DNA from: Mustelus asterias
Taxonomy: Eukaryota
NCBI RefSeq assembly: GCF_964213995.1
Contig: NC_135820.1
Coordinates: 62,682,001 to 62,746,000 of the forward strand
DNA: 64,000 nucleotides
Reading direction: 5' to 3'
Part shown: positions 11,371-48,839 of the stretch, one piece after another
Layout: each line of letters starts with the position of its first letter
Numbering within the stretch: the stretch's first letter is position 1
Position numbers and translations under genes: made by a program
Notes under the pieces: generated by a model
Told to the model about the DNA's origin: nothing
Database searches by the model: none
Seen by the model: only the letters and a program-made list of their open reading frames with translations

Positions 11371-12802
11371 TTTCAGATAAGCATTGAAGACTTTGTATGT
11401 GCATGTCCCAGATTGCAACTGGGAAGGACAGTGTTTCAGTAATTATACTTGCAAATATTTCATGCTATAAAGTGACAAAACGTTAATTCCCAGCCATGTT
11501 TTCAAATCAGCCAAAAAAATCTCAGTCCTGAAATAGTTTTAGAACAGAAACTTAAGTTGCTCCTCAGCATTCTTTAAGTTAACCGCACGTTAAAGAGTTA
11601 AGCAAGTTTGATTTTAAAATTAAAATGTTAATATTATGACTACCCAGCATAAATTTACATTATTATTTTGTTACTTACTTTGCAGGTCTTTGACCTCACT
11701 TGGCATCAAGTGCCTGTTCTGCCAACCTACTCAGTTTGACGTGCTTTTGGAAGTACTGCAGTTCTACATTGAAGACTTCTGACAGAGTAACCCAGTGTAG
11801 CCACCAGAAAAACACGCTACTCGTCAGGTGAGTGCAAATGAGCTCCCTTGCCTGCATAACCAATCACATCACCTTTGTAAACAGACTTCTTCTCCACCCC
11901 CCCCCAAGCAACAATTAGGCACAGACGTGCATAGGTGATGATGAGAAAATGAAACAAGTGGTTTAGCGCTGCTCCACTGAGTTTGGTCTGCTTCTGAGCC
12001 TCGAGGAATGACTTACAGGTACACAGAGTGAGATGTGACAAGAAAATAAGTGACCTAAATTCCAGCTTGTCTTTTTTAAACTGTTGGTACCGTTCTTAAT
12101 AAAAAGCTTTCTGGAGCTATGCTGCATAGTTTGTGGAGACCAGTCGTGATTCGTGTGTTGGGTTCCTGTTGTGCCCAAGGGTCAGAGAATCCCAGGAACA
12201 GGGAGCATCCGGCTTGGAATTGACTATGCATATTTAAATATGCTAATCTGGTCCCGGCCAGAGAGGGCCGGAATCAGATTACAGCGAGGCGTGGGGGTTG
12301 GGAGAATCCCAAAGGTGTTTCTCACTGCCATTAAATGCGCCTGTCCCCTCCCCCAGGATTCTTCAACCTGTGATGATACTGTGCCTTTAAGAACCGTATT
12401 TGTGTCATGTTTCTTCTGCAGGAACTGTTTTATACTTCATCTCTCATAATAATGCCAAAATGTCTCCTGCCGGCAGCCCACCTGCTGATTCTGCAGAAGC
12501 TTAATAACTCCTAATTATTGGAGTGTTTGTTTTAATCTAGGCTAATGCATTATTGATACTTTTAGAGTTTTTCCTGGGGTTCAGAGTAGTTGGATTAGAT
12601 TGCCTGACAAGAGAATCATGTGTGTGGGTGAAGCTAGGCGTACAGAGAAAGTAAAAATAAGCAGGCAGTTTCAGCTTGAATTTGAAAAGAGCAATAGCTC
12701 TTTCTCTCTCTCTCTCTCTCTGTCTGGAGATTTAAGTCTGTGGACCTGCTAGAAAATAAGTGTCTCTCTCTAGAGGTCTGCAAAAGGAACAAAAGGTTTT
12801 CG

Positions 12803-13718
12803 CACTGTGGTTAGCACTGCTGCCTCACAGTGCCAGGGACATAGTTTCGATTGCCGGCTTGGGTCACTGTCAGTGCGGGATTTGCACATTAAGAAAGCAA
12901 ATGTAATGTTGTCATTTATTTCAAGAGGCTTGGAATACAAAAGCAGGGATGTACTTCTGAGGCTTTATAAAGCACTGGTTAGGCCCCATTTGGAGTACTG
13001 TGAGCAATTTTGGGCCCCACACCTCAGGAAGGACATACTGGCACTGGAGCGGGTCCAGCGGAGATTCACACGGATGATCCCGGGAATGGTAGGCCTGACA
13101 TACGATGAACGTCTGAGGATCGTGGGATTGTATTCATTAGAGTTTAGGAGGTTGAGGGGAGATCTAATAGAAACTTACAAGATAATGAACGGCTTAGATA
13201 GGATGGACGTAGGGAAGTTGTTTCCATTAGCAGGGGAGACTAGGACGCGGGGGCACAGCCTTAGAATAAAAGGGAGTCACTTTAGAACAGAGATGAGGAG
13301 AAATTTCTTCAGCCAGAGAGTGGTAGGTCTGTGGAATTCATTGCCACAGAGGGCTGTGGAGGCCGAGACGTTAAGCGTCTTCAAGACAGAAATTGATAAA
13401 TTCTTGATTTCTCGAGGAATTAAGGGCTATGGGGAGAGAGCGGGTAAATGGAGTTGAAATCAACCATGATTGAATGGTGGAGTGGACTCGATGGGCCGAA
13501 TGGCCTTACTTCCGCTCCTATGTCTTATGGTCTTATGTCTACGTGGGTTTCCTCTGTGCTCCAGTTTCCTCCCACAGTCTGAAAGATGTGCTGGTTAGGT
13601 GCATTGGCCATGCTAAATTCTCCCTCAATGTACTCGAACAGACGCCGGAGTGTGGCAACTAGGGGATTTTCACAATAACTTCATTGCTGTGTTAATGTAA
13701 GCCTACTTGTGACACTAC
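12803..13718 (+). mobile_element. V-SINE type B split by CR1 (12803-12890 + 13539-13718)
   Basis: The two halves rejoin in register across the CR1 insert. Confidence 0.85.
12891..13538 (+). mobile_element. CR1 LINE 3' fragment inserted in a V-SINE
   Basis: LYKALVRPHLEYC...LRGDLIE...TRGH...WNSLP; TATGTCTTATGGTCTTATG tail. Confidence 0.93.
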
Positions 13719-20720: not shown

Positions 20721-21105
20721 ACTTTGGCAGGACTAGAAGATTCTGCCAGCAGGAGGGACTGGAAAATCCCACAGCGTGCTGCCCTGCATTGCATAAGAGT
20801 GAGGAAGAATCTGCACCAAGAGACATGATGAGTTTTGCGACGATACATTTGTCTCAGATAATAGATCAAAATGAATTATTGAATTGTATTGAATTCGCAC
20901 CTAACATTCAGTTCCGTTGCAGTCCTTGATCTTTTTATAGCTGGAATTCAAAGAAAATAGTTGGAGCGATTTTCTTAGCAGGGGCAAGTTAATAAAGCTG
21001 TTGACTTTCTTGACAGTCAGAGTTTTACTGCAGTCATTTATGAATGTACGAAAGCAAATAGTATCCAAAACCCTAGGCAGCAGAATCTCATTGCTCTTTC
21101 ACAGT

Positions 21106-22645
21106 GGGCGAGAACACTCGGAACAACAGGCCAGTTAGCCTCACATCTGTGGTGGGTAAATTGTTGGAAGGTATTTTGAGAGACAGGATCGACAGGCATT
21201 TAGAGATGCAAGGACTGATTAGGGACAGCCAGCATGGCTTTGTGAGTGGAAAATCATGTCTCACAAATTTGATTGAGTTTTTTGAAGGGGTAACCAAGAA
21301 GGTAGATGAGGACAGTGCAGTTGATGTTGTCTACATGAACTTTAGCAAGGCCTTTGACAAGGTACCGCATGGTAGGTTGTTGCCTAAAGTTAAATCTCAC
21401 AGGATCCAGGGCAAGGTATCTAAATGGATACAAAATTGGCTTCTTGACAGAAGCCAGAGGGTGGTTGTAGAGAGTTGTTTTTCAAACAGGAGGCCTGTGA
21501 CCAGCGGTGTACCTCAGGGATCAGTGCTGGGCCCACTGTTATTTGTCATTTATATTAATGATTTGGATGAGAATATAGGGAGCATGGTTAGTAAGTTTGC
21601 AGATGACACCAAGATTGGTGGCATGGTGAACAGTGAGGAAGGTTATCTCCAATTGCAGCGAGATCTTGATCAATTGGGCCAGTGGGCTGACGAATGGCAG
21701 ATGGAGTTTAATTTAAAGAAATGCGAGGTAATGCATTTTGGTAGATTGAACCAGGGCAGGACTTACACAGTTAATGGTAGGGCGTTGGGAAGAGTTACAG
21801 AACAAAGAGATCTAGGGGTACATGTTCATAGCTTCTTGAAAGTTGAGTCACAGGTGGACAGAGTGGTGAAGAAGGCATTTGGCATGCTTGGTTTCATCAG
21901 TCAGAACGTTGAATACAGGAGTTGGGACGTCTTGTTGAAGTTGTGCAAGACATTGGTAAGGCCACACTTGGAATACTGTGTGCAATTCTGGTCACCCTAT
22001 TATAGAGAGGATATTATTAAACTAGAAAGAGTGCAGAAAAGATTTACTAGGATGCTACCGGGACTTGATGGTTTGAGTTATAAGGAGAGGTTGGATAGAC
22101 TGGGACTTTTTTCTCTGGAGCATAGGAGGCTGACGGGTGACCTTATAGAGGTCTATAAAATAATGAGGGGCATAGACAAGGTAGATAGTCAATATCTTTT
22201 CCCAAAGGTAGGGGAGTCTAAAACTAGAGGGCATAGGTTTAAGGTGAGAGGGGAGAGATACAAAAGTGTCCAGAGGGGCAATTGTTTCACACAGAGGGTG
22301 GTGGGTGTCTGGAACAAGCTGCCAGAGGTAGTAGTAGAGGCGGGTACAATTTTATCTTTTAAAAAGCATTTAGATAGTTACATGGGTACGATGGGTGTAG
22401 AGGGATATGGGCCAAATACAGACAATTGGGATTAGTTTAGGGATTTTGAAACAAAAAAAAATAAGGGCGGCATGGACAAGTTGGGCCGAAGGGCCTGTTT
22501 CCATGCTGTAAACCTCTATGACTCTATGTTCTGGCTCTTCACACTGGTGGGATCTTCCAGTCCTGCCAAAGTCTGTGGATGTTTAAATGGCTCGCCGCAT
22601 CTGCCATTGGGAAACATGCTGCAGCAGAGCTGGAAAATCCCAGCT
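21106..22645. mobile_element. Harbinger-type MITE split within its left TIR by the CR1
   Basis: AGT on both outer flanks; body 22529-22645 similar to the 28803 and 29611 MITEs. Confidence 0.5.
21121..22528 (+). mobile_element. CR1 LINE, 5'-truncated, young; open RT-domain ORF2 fragment (ORF 21104-22435)
   Basis: RPVSLTSVVGK, QHGF, FSKAFDKV, GVPQGSVLGP, KFADDTK, LVRPHLEYC, WNKLP motifs; ends in CTATGACTCTATG tail. Confidence 0.95.
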
Positions 22646-31672: not shown

Positions 31673-32692
31673 TTAACTGTTAATGTGGCACCGTTCGAAG
31701 CACTCTCTACCCATGAGTCACAAGGTTAGGGGTTCCACATCCCTACAGTGCTTTGGCACACAAGCCAAGACTGACATTCCAGTGCAGTATGACTGCTGCA
31801 CAGTCAGAGGTGCTGACCTTTCAGTGAAATGTCAAACCATGGTCCCATTTGCTGGCTTAGGTGGGTGCAAAACATCCCATGGTACTATTTCACGTAAAAA
31901 TGGGAGAGTTACCTATGATGTCCTGGCCAAATTTCACTCCTCAATCAGCATTACAAAAACAGATGGGCCTGATTTTACCAAACGGGCGTGAAATCACGGT
32001 AAAGTTGGGCATCGGGCCTTTAACGCGATCTGCACCTGAATCCAAGCAGATCGCGGCTTTACCGACACCCGATTCGGGCGCGGGTCCGGCGCGCGCCCGA
32101 ATCAGGCGGCCCGACGATTTAAATGCATTTGCATGCATTTAAATCGACTTAATGAACCACGCGCCCAACTCTACCGCCAATCCCACTTTACCGTCTTCTG
32201 GCCCAATCCGCGTCCGCGCTGTCACCGACCTGCAAAATAAAATTCTGAAGTCGCCGCCGAAGCATTCGAAGAGCGGGGTCAGAGACCTGCAACGGCTCTC
32301 TGACCCAGGTCATCCTCTGGTCGGGGGGAGGGGGATGGAAGAAGGAGAAGGGGTGTGACGTCTCATCCCCTGGGGGGGGGGGGGGGGGGGGGGGGAAGGG
32401 GGGGGGGAAGGAGGAGGGGGGTGACCGATCATCCCCTGGGGGGGGGGGGGGGAGGGGGGGAAGAGGGGGTGTGACCGATCATCCTCGGGGAGGGGGGGGG
32501 TGGGCGGGGAGGGTGGTGGGAGGGGGGGGGGTGACCGATCATCCCCTGGGGGGGGTGGGGAGGGGGGGCGTTGGGAGGAGAGGGGGTGTGACATCTGATC
32601 CTCTGGTCGGGGGGGTTCTGCTGCCTGTCTGCGGCCGATCCCTCCTCCCCACCGGATGAACGAATCCCTCCTGCCGGAGTGGACGTGCGGCC

Positions 32693-32792
32693 ATGCCATC
32701 CCACAAAACCTTCAGGATGAAGTGATTCCTTACTAAGAAGATGAAGCAGAACCGGCCGAGTCCACAGTGGATCCGCATGAAAACCGGCTACA
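32693..32792 (+). pseudogene. RPL39: Inverted partial duplicate of the RPL39 retrocopy (codons 1-33, premature TGA at codon 11)
   Basis: ATGCCATCCCACAAAACCTTCAGGATGAAGTGATTC...ATGAAAACCGGCTACA is a near-exact reverse complement of 32925-33024, with CGA>TGA. Confidence 0.92.
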
Positions 32793-32869
32793 GGCATCTC
32801 TCCCGCTCTCTTGCCCCTGCAGGGAAGAGTAATCTGTGGCTGGTAGTGTACCAGTGATGGTGTATCGCT

Positions 32870-33024
32870 TTACAGGCCCAGCTTGGTCCTTCTCCAGTGT
32901 CTCCTCTTGAACTTGTACTGATCTTGTAGCCGGTTTTCATGCGGATCCACTGTGGAATCGGCCGGTTCTGCTTCATCTTCTTAGTGAGGAATCGCTTCAT
33001 CCTGAAGGTTTTGTGGGATGGCAT
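32870..33024 (-). pseudogene. RPL39: Processed pseudogene of 60S ribosomal protein L39 (full-length CDS, 1-nt deletion)
   Basis: Translates [35 protein letters not shown], then after a 1-nt frameshift [15 protein letters not shown]. This matches the conserved RPL39 ([51 protein letters not shown]). 155 nt vs 156 expected; no introns. Confidence 0.95.
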
Positions 33025-33116
33025 TGCCGCACGTCCACTCCGGCAGGAGGGATCGGCCGCAGCCAGGCAGCAGAACCCCCCCCCGACCAGAGGATGAGAC
33101 GTCACACCCCCTCTCC

Positions 33117-33148
<32 letters not shown>

Positions 33149-33869
33149 CCAGGGATGATCGGTCACACCCCCTCCCCTCCCACCCACCCAGAGGATGAGA
33201 CGTCACACCCCTTCCCCTCCCACCACCCCCCCCCGACCAGAGGATGATCTAGGTCCCGCCCCCCTCCTCCTCCCCCCCCCCCCCCCACCCCTTCCCCCCG
33301 ACCAGAGGATGACCGTCAGAGAGCTGCTCTCCCCGCTTTCTGCTTTTTCTTTCTCTCGCACCTGTCAGATTTTTTTCAAACGGCGCATGCGCAGTTCAGA
33401 GCTCCAATCGGTCCACCAGCGCTAAGCCCCGCCCATAGTGCAGATCGGGCCGGAGCCGGCAAAATGCATATGGGCGCGCTGGGAAGAGGATTCCAGGCGC
33501 GGATCTATTTGATGCCCGGATTCGGCACTTAGACTCAAAATGGTAAATTCCCCCCATTATCTGGTCATTATCACATTGCTGCTTGTCAGAAGTTGCAGTG
33601 TACAAATTGGTTGCCCTGTTACATAAATTACAACAGTGTCTATACCTCAAAAAGGAAGTACTTCATTGGCTGTAAAGTGCTTTGAGACATCCTGGTCATG
33701 AATAAAGCTATATAATTGCAAGTCTTTCTCCCCTCCAGCCCCAACCTCTTGACCTACTTTAAACTAAAACTTTAAAGCCTTCAATGTCTGACCTCATGTG
33801 TGTGCCTGGGCTGTGAGTATTAGCAGATTATCCAACCTTCTGGAGAATGGAAATAAGTCAGAGGAAAGT

Positions 33870-36870: not shown

Positions 36871-37430
36871 GGAGCTTTATAGGACCCTGGTTAGACCCCA
36901 CTTGGAGTACTGCGCGCAGTTCTGGTCACCTCATTACAGGAAAGATGTTGAAGCCATTGAAAGGGTGCAGAGGAGATTTACAAGGATGTTGCCTGGATTG
37001 GGGGGCATGCCTTATGAGGATAGGTTGAGGGAGCTTGGTCTCTTCTCCCTGGAGAGACGAAGGATGAGAGGTGACCTGATAGAGGTTTACAAGATGTTGA
37101 GAGGTCTGGATAGGGTAGACTCTCAGAGGCTATTTCCAAGGGCTGAAATGGTTGCTACGAGAGGACACAGGTTTAAGGTGCTGGGGGGTAGGTACAGAGG
37201 AGATGTCAGGGGTAAGTTTTTCACTCAGAGGGTGGTGGGTGAGTGGAATCGGCTGACGTCGGTGGTGGTGGAGGCAAACTCGTTGGGGTCTTTTAAGAGA
37301 CTTCTGGATGAGTACATGGGATTTAATGGGATTGAGGGCTATAGATAGGCCTAGAGGTGGGGATGTGATCGGCGCAACTTGTGGGCCGAAGGGCCTGTTT
37401 GTGCTGTGGCTTTCTATGTTCTATGTTCTA
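36871..37430 (+). mobile_element. CR1 LINE 3' fragment
   Basis: LYRTLVRPHLEYC...RRMRGDLIEV...TRGHRFK; (CTATGTT)n tail; TATA on both flanks. Confidence 0.93.
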
Positions 37431-47296: not shown

Positions 47297-47863
47297 CATA
47301 GAACGTAGAACATAGAACAGTACAGCACAGAACAGGCCCTTCGACCCATGATGTTGTGCCGAGCTTTATCTGAAACCAAGATCAAGCTATTCCACTCCCT
47401 ATCATCCTGGTGTGCTCCATGTGCCTATCCAATAACCGCTTAAATGTTCCTAAAGTGTCTGACTCCACTATCACTGCAGGCAGTCCATTCCACACCCCAA
47501 CCACTCTCTGCGTAAAGAACCTACCTCGGATATCCTTCCTGTATCTCCCACCACGAACCCTATAGTTATGCCCCCTTGTAATAGCTCCATCCACCCGAGG
47601 AAATAGTCTTTGAACGTTCACTCTATCTATCCCCTTCATCATTTTATAAACCTCTATCAAGTGTCCCCTCAGCCTCCTCCGCTCCAGAGAGAACAGCCCT
47701 AGCTCCCGCAACCTTTCCTCATAAGAACTACCCTCCAAACCAGGCAGCATCCTGGTAAATCTCCTCTGCACTCTTTCCAGCGCTTCCACATCCTTCCTAT
47801 AGTGAGGTGACCAGAACTGCACACAATACTCCAAATGTGGTCTCACCAAGGTCCTGTACAGTT
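47297..47863 (-). mobile_element. CR1 LINE 3' fragment
   Basis: ORF 47382-47849 encodes the CR1 ORF2 C-terminus; (CATAGAA)n tail on the + strand; GGTA target-site duplication. Confidence 0.93.
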
Positions 47864-47989
47864 GGTAGTGTTTACATTCCTTCTGACCTACAACCTACAT
47901 TTGTATAGTGCCTTTACCTGAGAACAGTATCCCAAAGTGCATCACAGAGGTGCAATCAGAGAAAAATCGCACTAAGCAAAGAATATATC

Positions 47990-48839
47990 GGGCCCGATTT
48001 TACCATCACGTTTTCGGGCGCAATAGCTTGGTAAAGTCGGGCATGAGGCGAGTAGCGCAATCCGCGCCCGCCTCCGCACCAGTTCCCCCTTTACCAAGGC
48101 CCGAAAATGGCCACGATCAGGACCGTGCCCGAAATGGACGTGACGGCCATTTAAATGCATTTGCATGCATTTAAATTGACTTAATGGGTTGCACGCCCAA
48201 CCTTACCGGCACTTCTCCATTTATCACCATGTTCGCCCATCCAGAATCGGCGTAAATAAGACAGGCTCCACAAAAGTCTGATTTAGGCGTTTCAGTTAGT
48301 GAGGAGGTAAGTGCTGAGCATCCGACGGCTCTCTGCTTGGGATCGGGTGGGGGGGGGGGGGGGGGGGTGGTGGTGGGAGGAGTGGGGGGTCCACTGCCAC
48401 TCTGCCTGTGATTAGTGAGGGGAAGGGGGGTTCGCTGTCACGCTGTCTGTGATCAGTGAGGGGGAAGGGGGGAAGGGCCTGTGATTGTTCTGGATGGCGG
48501 GGGGATGGAGAGGGGATAAGGGGGTCAGTAATGTTGTGGGGGTGGGGCAATGTCTGTGGGGGCCAGGGGGAGGCATTATCCGGCCCAGGAGGGATGTAGC
48601 AGGGGAGCAGCATTCTATCATTTTTTTTCCGCGTATGCGCAGTTGGAGGCGCCGATCGGACCTGCAGGATTTTGGGTGCATTAAGCCCCGCCCACAGGCT
48701 TCTGCAGCACGATTCAGAATCGCTTATATTTTTTCAGGCAGTGTGCGCATGGGGGTGCCTGAGAACAGGTCTAAAAGTCGGATCTGAAACAGCTTCAAGT
48801 CCGCCCAGCACTTAGAATCAAAATGGTAAAATAGGGCCC
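47990..48839. mobile_element. Non-autonomous TIR DNA transposon (PIF/Harbinger-like), sister of 31965-33555
   Basis: 17-bp TIRs GGGCCCGATTTTACCAT / ATGGTAAAATAGGGCCC (16/17); flanks ATC/ATT; inserted into an L2-like 3' tail. Confidence 0.85.

Follow-up and report, generated by a model that had tools for sequence, protein, structure and literature searches.

A Harbinger-like transposon family carrying a spliced and doubled RPL39 message in the genome of the shark Mustelus asterias

The 64,000-nucleotide stretch of Mustelus asterias DNA that we analysed (the window), positions 62682001-62746000 of contig C20, contains a 1,591-bp element carrying RPL39 sequences (31965-33555). From the left, a terminal inverted repeat (TIR; 31965-31980, plus strand) common to transposase-bearing Harbinger elements is followed by a subterminal region (31981-32294, plus) with 71-76% identity to the left ends of such elements, and then by a left inner arm (32295-32675, plus) made of a variable array of G-rich units and a linker. 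This arm leads into the first RPL39 copy (32676-32792, plus), which has 17 nt of 5'UTR, an ATG at 32693 and codons 1-33, and which terminates at a 91-bp deletion with the 3-nt microhomology ACA. A spacer (32793-32833, plus), which is distal RPL39 3'UTR found in the longer copy only, extends to the tail-to-tail junction between 32833 and 32834. The second RPL39 copy (32834-33041, minus) has 17 nt of 5'UTR, a CDS that lacks both introns (33024-32870) and 36 nt of 3'UTR. The right inner arm (33042-33324, minus), a linker and then an array of C-rich units, mirrors the left one; it is followed by a right subterminal region (33325-33540, plus), which matches the corresponding end of the transposase-bearing element L224 at 82% along 136 bp, and by a right TIR (33541-33555, minus), a variant ending in a C6 run that is frequent in the hairpin subfamily. 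The insertion interrupts an interspersed repeat, which we take to be SINE-like, and its target site duplication (TSD) is imperfect: ATT stands on the right (33556-33558) and AT on the left (31963-31964), one base short of the 3-bp duplication that is indicated by a paralogous empty site, ACAG-ATT-ATCTGG, and by the TSDs of the family.

The fold-back hairpin that the initial annotation had placed inside these TIRs is well supported. Its inverted arms (32664-32792 and 32925-33053) are 129 nt long, 97% complementary and 132 nt apart, and looser G-rich and C-rich arms reach outward to 32295 and 33324. The predicted RNA fold of 32600-33095 has an energy of -391.5 kcal/mol (z -31.85), which none of 100 shuffles equalled, and a profile search identifies RPL39 by a PF00832 match on the minus strand (32926-33024, E 1.3e-11). 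Both arms are pseudogenised: codon 11 is a stop in the left arm, and the right arm has lost 1 nt where exons 2 and 3 meet, after codon 35. The anatomy differs from the first description in several respects. The 132-nt loop does hold the rest of the RPL39 CDS and downstream sequence, but not as one piece: 41 nt of 3'UTR lie on the plus strand (32793-32833), and the remaining CDS with 36 nt of 3'UTR on the minus strand (32834-32924). The short leader noticed in the arms is also present, but host 5'UTR makes up only 17 nt of it and the remainder is element DNA. Finally, instead of one RPL39 copy with a partly duplicated 5' end, as had been proposed, there are two tail-to-tail copies, and the 132-nt loop arose when 91 bp of the left arm were later lost across the ACA microhomology. 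This deletion breakpoint is absent from the five similar copies that we compared.

Other mobile DNA lies in the same window. A Harbinger-type MITE of 850 bp (47990-48839) has the same TIR as the RPL39 element, related ends (69% over 223 bp) and G-rich units without RPL39; it is a cargo-free relative. Reverse-transcriptase frame fragments, which we presume to be LINE-like, occur at 12774-13457, 21077-22435, 36872-37348 and 47382-47894. Among the window's open reading frames of at least 110 aa, we found no clear host exon.

How does the element relate to known transposons? Of 71 family loci examined, 53 are bounded on each side by 16-bp TIRs that begin with GGG. Perfect 3-bp TSDs flank 36 of these 53 elements (shuffled mean 2.8, maximum 9; at most 7 for other lengths), and a second sample of 40 loci gave 3-bp TSDs in 15 of 25. 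The 36 TSDs comprise 18 different trimers, mostly A/T-rich, and do not follow a strict TWA target; their flanks prefer a palindromic AC-WWW-GT site that resembles in form the palindromic target described for Harbinger3_DR of zebrafish (PMC3016246). A genome search for the DDE_Tnp_4 domain (PF13359) returned 10,689 first-look candidates. Among the best 30 of these loci, 23 match the element's left end, and none has a left end closer than about 76% to the window copy. Five of the six loci that were extended (L221-L224 and L226) are complete transposase-bearing elements, 3.6-5.8 kb long and bounded by the same TIR; in L225, the PF13359 match reaches E 7e-41. The evidence for a Myb/SANT-like domain (PF13873) is marginal in L224, with 22.1 bits against a cut-off of 21.7 in a frame read across a stop, and a fragment of L226 gave no match.

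Harbinger ends, 3-bp TSDs and a TIR common with transposase-bearing elements thus agree with the earlier proposal of gene capture by a non-autonomous Harbinger-type element. On this sequence evidence, the RPL39 element qualifies both as a non-autonomous PIF/Harbinger-type transposon and as a multicopy Pack-TIR. Like fish PIF/Harbinger elements such as Harbinger3_DR, as described in the accessible parts of three reports (PMC9179366, PMC3016246, PMC4482050), the family combines GGG termini, a 3-bp TSD and a palindromic target with, in its autonomous relatives, a DDE transposase and a Myb/SANT-like ORF. Unlike them, its TSD is loose and AT-rich, not a strict TWA or CWG, and its TIR measures 16 bp against the 25-50 bp cited there.

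Three of the transposase-bearing relatives (L221-L223, on C4, C1 and C7) are 3.6 kb long and seemingly lack a Myb-like exon. They have the same inner arms as the cargo family, with a small palindrome where RPL39 sits in the latter; this palindrome could mark a site that never held cargo or one that has lost it. Several of the 10,689 transposase-domain candidates have open frames of more than 400 aa on small contigs (L091-L094), a sign that Harbinger elements have expanded very strongly, and perhaps recently, in this genome.

The size of the cargo family became apparent when the 3.68-Gb genome was searched. The 20-nt central junction of the hairpin has 2,239 matches at no more than one mismatch, compared with none for the reversed-pattern control, and these sites have different flanks and TSDs, as anticipated if the element was mobilised after capture. 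A search with the element core returned 1,544 first-look candidates (40 scored, all 40 matching), the left end 4,612 (40 scored) and PF00832 3,700 (150 scored). In sequencing runs from two other organisms, contigs show many family variants at high depth (X5, 390; X7, 87), so that the family is probably shared with relatives. Runs from three further organisms (X9, X14 and X10) each yielded single low-depth hairpin contigs with the family's majority letters, which may reflect trace DNA or low-copy presence, and we do not read them as further host species. We found no published report of an RPL39-carrying Harbinger hairpin family in the open literature on shark genomes, RPL39 and gene capture; repeat databases may list it.

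To locate the parent gene, we used a pattern in which the start of exon 2 stands behind a splice acceptor. It has two matches, one of which is the real gene on contig C14. This gene lies outside any element of the kind described here, and its three exons are separated by GT-AG introns about 1.7 and 5.3 kb long. The cargo consists of all three exons joined, and the absence of both introns upholds the spliced, retro-derived origin first suggested from the window alone. It runs from 17 nt upstream of the ATG to exon-3 base 126, short of the AATAAA, and is about 96% identical to the host message; the mismatches number 8 in 232 aligned bases for one arm of the window copy and 6 in 117 for the other. 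Around the cargo, all loci mapped lack a poly(A) tail and a flanking inner TSD, possibly through secondary loss, and 3'UTR past exon-3 base 126 is present in no element examined. When the genome was searched for this distal 3'UTR, the two candidates were the gene itself and one old retrocopy on C9 (L228, 30873680-30873900), a 5'-truncated processed pseudogene with 80% identity and an A-rich end. The retrocopy is too diverged to have donated the cargo. It shares with the cargo two 3'UTR letters that differ in the living gene, and these are therefore probably ancestral.

In full copies of the element, two RPL39 copies stand tail-to-tail. The shorter stops at exon-3 base 86 and the longer at base 126, and the roughly 40 nt by which they differ are the 3'UTR spacer between them. 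In intact copies the RPL39 arms measure 209 bp. One 5' joint and one central junction are shared across the family, and the joint from element to gene is identical on both arms, which implies that the doubling took place after capture and included element DNA. We also rejected an inversion by LINE twin priming: the central joint connects two 3' ends, and both arms contain the same element DNA. Among 40 spacers, 18 lie in plus and 22 in minus orientation. A weak stem is predicted in the host 3'UTR with its base about two bases from both breakpoints, which is no more than suggestive.

The family also contains forms that differ from the full hairpin. The frameshifted exon joint seen in the window has 1,141 exact matches in the genome, and the in-frame joint has 30 (control 1). 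All but one of these 30 belong to a sister subfamily (type A, about 67 candidates) with one sense RPL39 copy, often in frame, and some 600 bp of AT-rich DNA. The latter segment (L036:1660-2260), 3' of the in-frame RPL39, is at least 94% identical in 40 of 40 scored matches, none of which points to a source outside the family; it may be a second capture. The remaining in-frame match, L042, has the central junction together with an intact RPL39 frame, which makes it likely that the junction arose before the frameshift. In a tree built from 56 left ends (midpoint root, bootstrap not settled), type A stands beside one transposase-bearing group and the hairpin types beside another. The order of single-copy type A and the hairpin type hangs on one intermediate (L042) and on this tree with its unsettled bootstrap. 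Three distinct type-A or L042 proteins were absent from the protein collection. In a chimeric subfamily (L199, L200, L201, L203, L214 and L216), ends and an extra segment like those of the L221-L223 group (80-89%) are joined to an RPL39 3'UTR mini-hairpin, which suggests exchange between autonomous and cargo elements.

What happened to the hairpins after they spread? The arms of 15 full or near-full hairpins show 3.4% divergence inside one element, 3.7% when different elements are compared and 1.9% relative to the family majority. With divergence within elements about equal to that between them, the arms decay freely after insertion. This similarity, together with seven shared private changes in 5 of the 15 elements, leaves ongoing homogenisation of the arms in resident copies unsupported. 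In founder copies, on the other hand, arm-to-arm copying is pointed to by a "mini" deletion that removes the whole CDS: of 115 loci with the junction, 32 have an identical deletion joint on each arm, and 5 show mixed forms. We then considered the length of the RPL39 duplex in 57 copies, the first junction matches on C1, which are all exact and hence biased to younger copies: it is at least 100 bp in 7, 40-99 bp in 2, 20-39 bp in 32 and less than 20 bp in 16, and the coding part is gone in 32. If the share of 7 in 57 holds, about 275 copies genome-wide have an RPL39 duplex of at least 100 bp. Frameshifted arms (28) have a pN/pS of 0.97. In type A, 22 of 29 copies have an ATG, no stop and no gap, and a comparison for purifying selection on the ORFs gives 0.60 (29 copies) or 0.46 (10 copies, an overlapping set) against this 0.97, from a biased pick and with Fisher p values of 0.11 and 0.07.

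We favour a history of one RPL39 capture and one fold-back duplication, followed by passive amplification to more than 2,000 sites, in which the hairpin is a by-product without selected function (probability about 0.7). A Harbinger ancestor would have acquired a copy of the spliced host message when RPL39 cDNA was used to mend a break in the element through microhomology, as the GGAG at the 5' joint and the lack of poly(A) and inner TSD suggest. A model for this first step exists in mouse zygotes, where spliced mRNA is reverse-transcribed and captured at CRISPR breaks (PMC4516963, in the parts accessible); in the RPL39 family it is the joints that point to it. During gap repair, the nascent strand may then have folded back 40 nt before its end, so that gene and left inner arm were copied a second time before the strand reconnected with the right end; this would account in one step for the joint shared by both arms, element DNA included. 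Later recombination between the arms could, in founder copies, have inverted the centre and carried changes across from one arm to the other, and the unstable long palindrome would have been trimmed in most lineages. Spread was likely as a passenger of Harbinger transposase supplied in trans. Several points count against this explanation: a cargo-free direct ancestor could not be pinned down among the relatives, drift accounts for the excess of frameshifted hairpins (1,141 against 30) no better than a hairpin advantage does, the order of type A and the hairpin type depends on L042 and the unsettled tree, the 30 transposase loci compared include no left end closer than about 76% to the window copy, and a contig across the junction in one run labelled RNA-Seq (X16) fits transcription or DNA carry-over. 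It is also conceivable, though less likely, that a LINE-made processed pseudogene of RPL39 landed in an existing Harbinger MITE and lost its poly(A) and TSD in the later fold-back and deletions, so that the apparent capture was nested retroposition followed by amplification. A spliced cargo truncated at its 5' end by about 20 nt, the LINE-like reverse-transcriptase ORFs common in the window and the old C9 retrocopy with its A-rich end would all fit, and the available text of Tan et al. leaves this route open for ARF6 in MER20 (PMC8277862). However, the examined elements contain neither 3'UTR past exon-3 base 126 nor a poly(A) tail, and the distal 3'UTR led to the gene and the old C9 copy only. 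An assembly artefact at the poly-G tracts, which the initial annotation had named beforehand as a threat to its reading, and a one-off insertion with local inversion, which it had also considered, have by now a negligible chance: long homopolymer runs do lie on both sides of the hairpin, but the 2,239 junction matches with their distinct flanks and TSDs, and junction-spanning contigs in the independent runs X9, X14 and X16, speak against both.

Hairpin pseudogene loci that give rise to endo-siRNAs are known from mouse oocytes, and psiPPM1K is reportedly a locus of this kind. Like them, the RPL39 family has long, near-perfect inverted repeats of processed-pseudogene copies that match the parent mRNA and could fold into dsRNA; they are single loci with shown small RNAs, whereas the RPL39 family is mobile, multicopy and known from DNA. 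A transcript across the window copy would form an RPL39 duplex of about 117 bp, in which 38 of 109 21-mers on one arm and 42 of 109 on the other are identical to the host message. The family might therefore be a source of small RNAs, either endo-siRNAs that Dicer cuts from long hairpins or piRNAs produced by copies in germline clusters, and these would be antisense to RPL39 mRNA in whichever direction the element is transcribed. Any silencing of the transposon would then strike an essential gene too, at a cost that favours derivatives without coding arms. It is plausible that small RNAs could silence host RPL39 in this way; in rice, young Pack-MULEs that resemble their parental genes yield more siRNAs (PMC5861414, accessible text). 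Compatible with such a role are the arms' identity to the message, the 7 sampled copies with at least 100 bp of duplex, the 32 that have lost the coding part, and a junction contig in X16, a run labelled RNA-Seq (a kind we guessed), which fits transcription or DNA carry-over; runs X17 and X20 yielded no such contigs. Against it, the copies decay independently with no trace of arm maintenance, palindrome instability alone accounts for the deletions, the window's ORFs of at least 110 aa include no clear host exon nearby, and efficient endo-siRNA production in vertebrates is best known from mouse oocytes (PMC6944382, as far as the available text goes). We thus consider this role unlikely and prefer passive amplification. 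At its most speculative, and with equally low odds, we envision that the mRNA of an essential ribosomal protein was turned into a mobile hairpin at thousands of sites, that germline small RNAs directed against the transposon are unavoidably antisense to RPL39, that the cargo acts as a shield or a trans-regulator, and that the shift to armless copies records the conflict.

Gene capture by TIR elements has precedents. In animals, the accessible text of Tan et al. (PMC8277862) lists 370 Pack-TIR candidates, most of them single-copy; the multicopy cases number four in frog and alligator, and in fly there are four copies of Ssk-FB4, an element that retains introns. None of the words shark, Harbinger, ribosomal and hairpin appears in that main text as available. 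Like those elements, the RPL39 family is a non-autonomous TIR element with host gene sequence, re-transposed with distinct TSDs, for which template switching is invoked; unlike them, it holds its cargo in spliced form, doubled into a hairpin, and occupies more than 2,000 sites. Thus spliced cargo, hairpin form and copy number are unusual for Pack-TIRs. Plant Pack-MULEs and Pack-PIF/Harbinger elements likewise hold gene pieces within TIRs: in the portions of two surveys at hand (PMC5861414, PMC8903248), PIF is among the superfamilies covered, the largest clusters exceed 100 elements in maize, and siRNAs are shared with parental genes. The RPL39 family differs from these in its vertebrate host, its single essential housekeeping mRNA, an inverted duplication that would give both strands, and its far larger size as one family.

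For genome analysis, the 3,700 RPL39-like candidate matches would mimic a huge gene-family expansion and can confuse the mapping of RPL39 reads. For the biology of the family, multicopy gene capture by animal TIR transposons is reported as rare and limited to few copies, as far as the accessible text of one survey goes (PMC8277862), and here a spliced housekeeping mRNA is found at thousands of copies. Its intermediates are readable, from the single in-frame copy through the full hairpin to one-armed deletions and the mini-hairpin, so that capture, fold-back duplication and arm-to-arm copying can be studied directly. And because the frameshifted joint and the central junction separate element reads from host reads, the family offers a clean test of whether small RNAs directed at a transposon can strike an essential vertebrate host gene.
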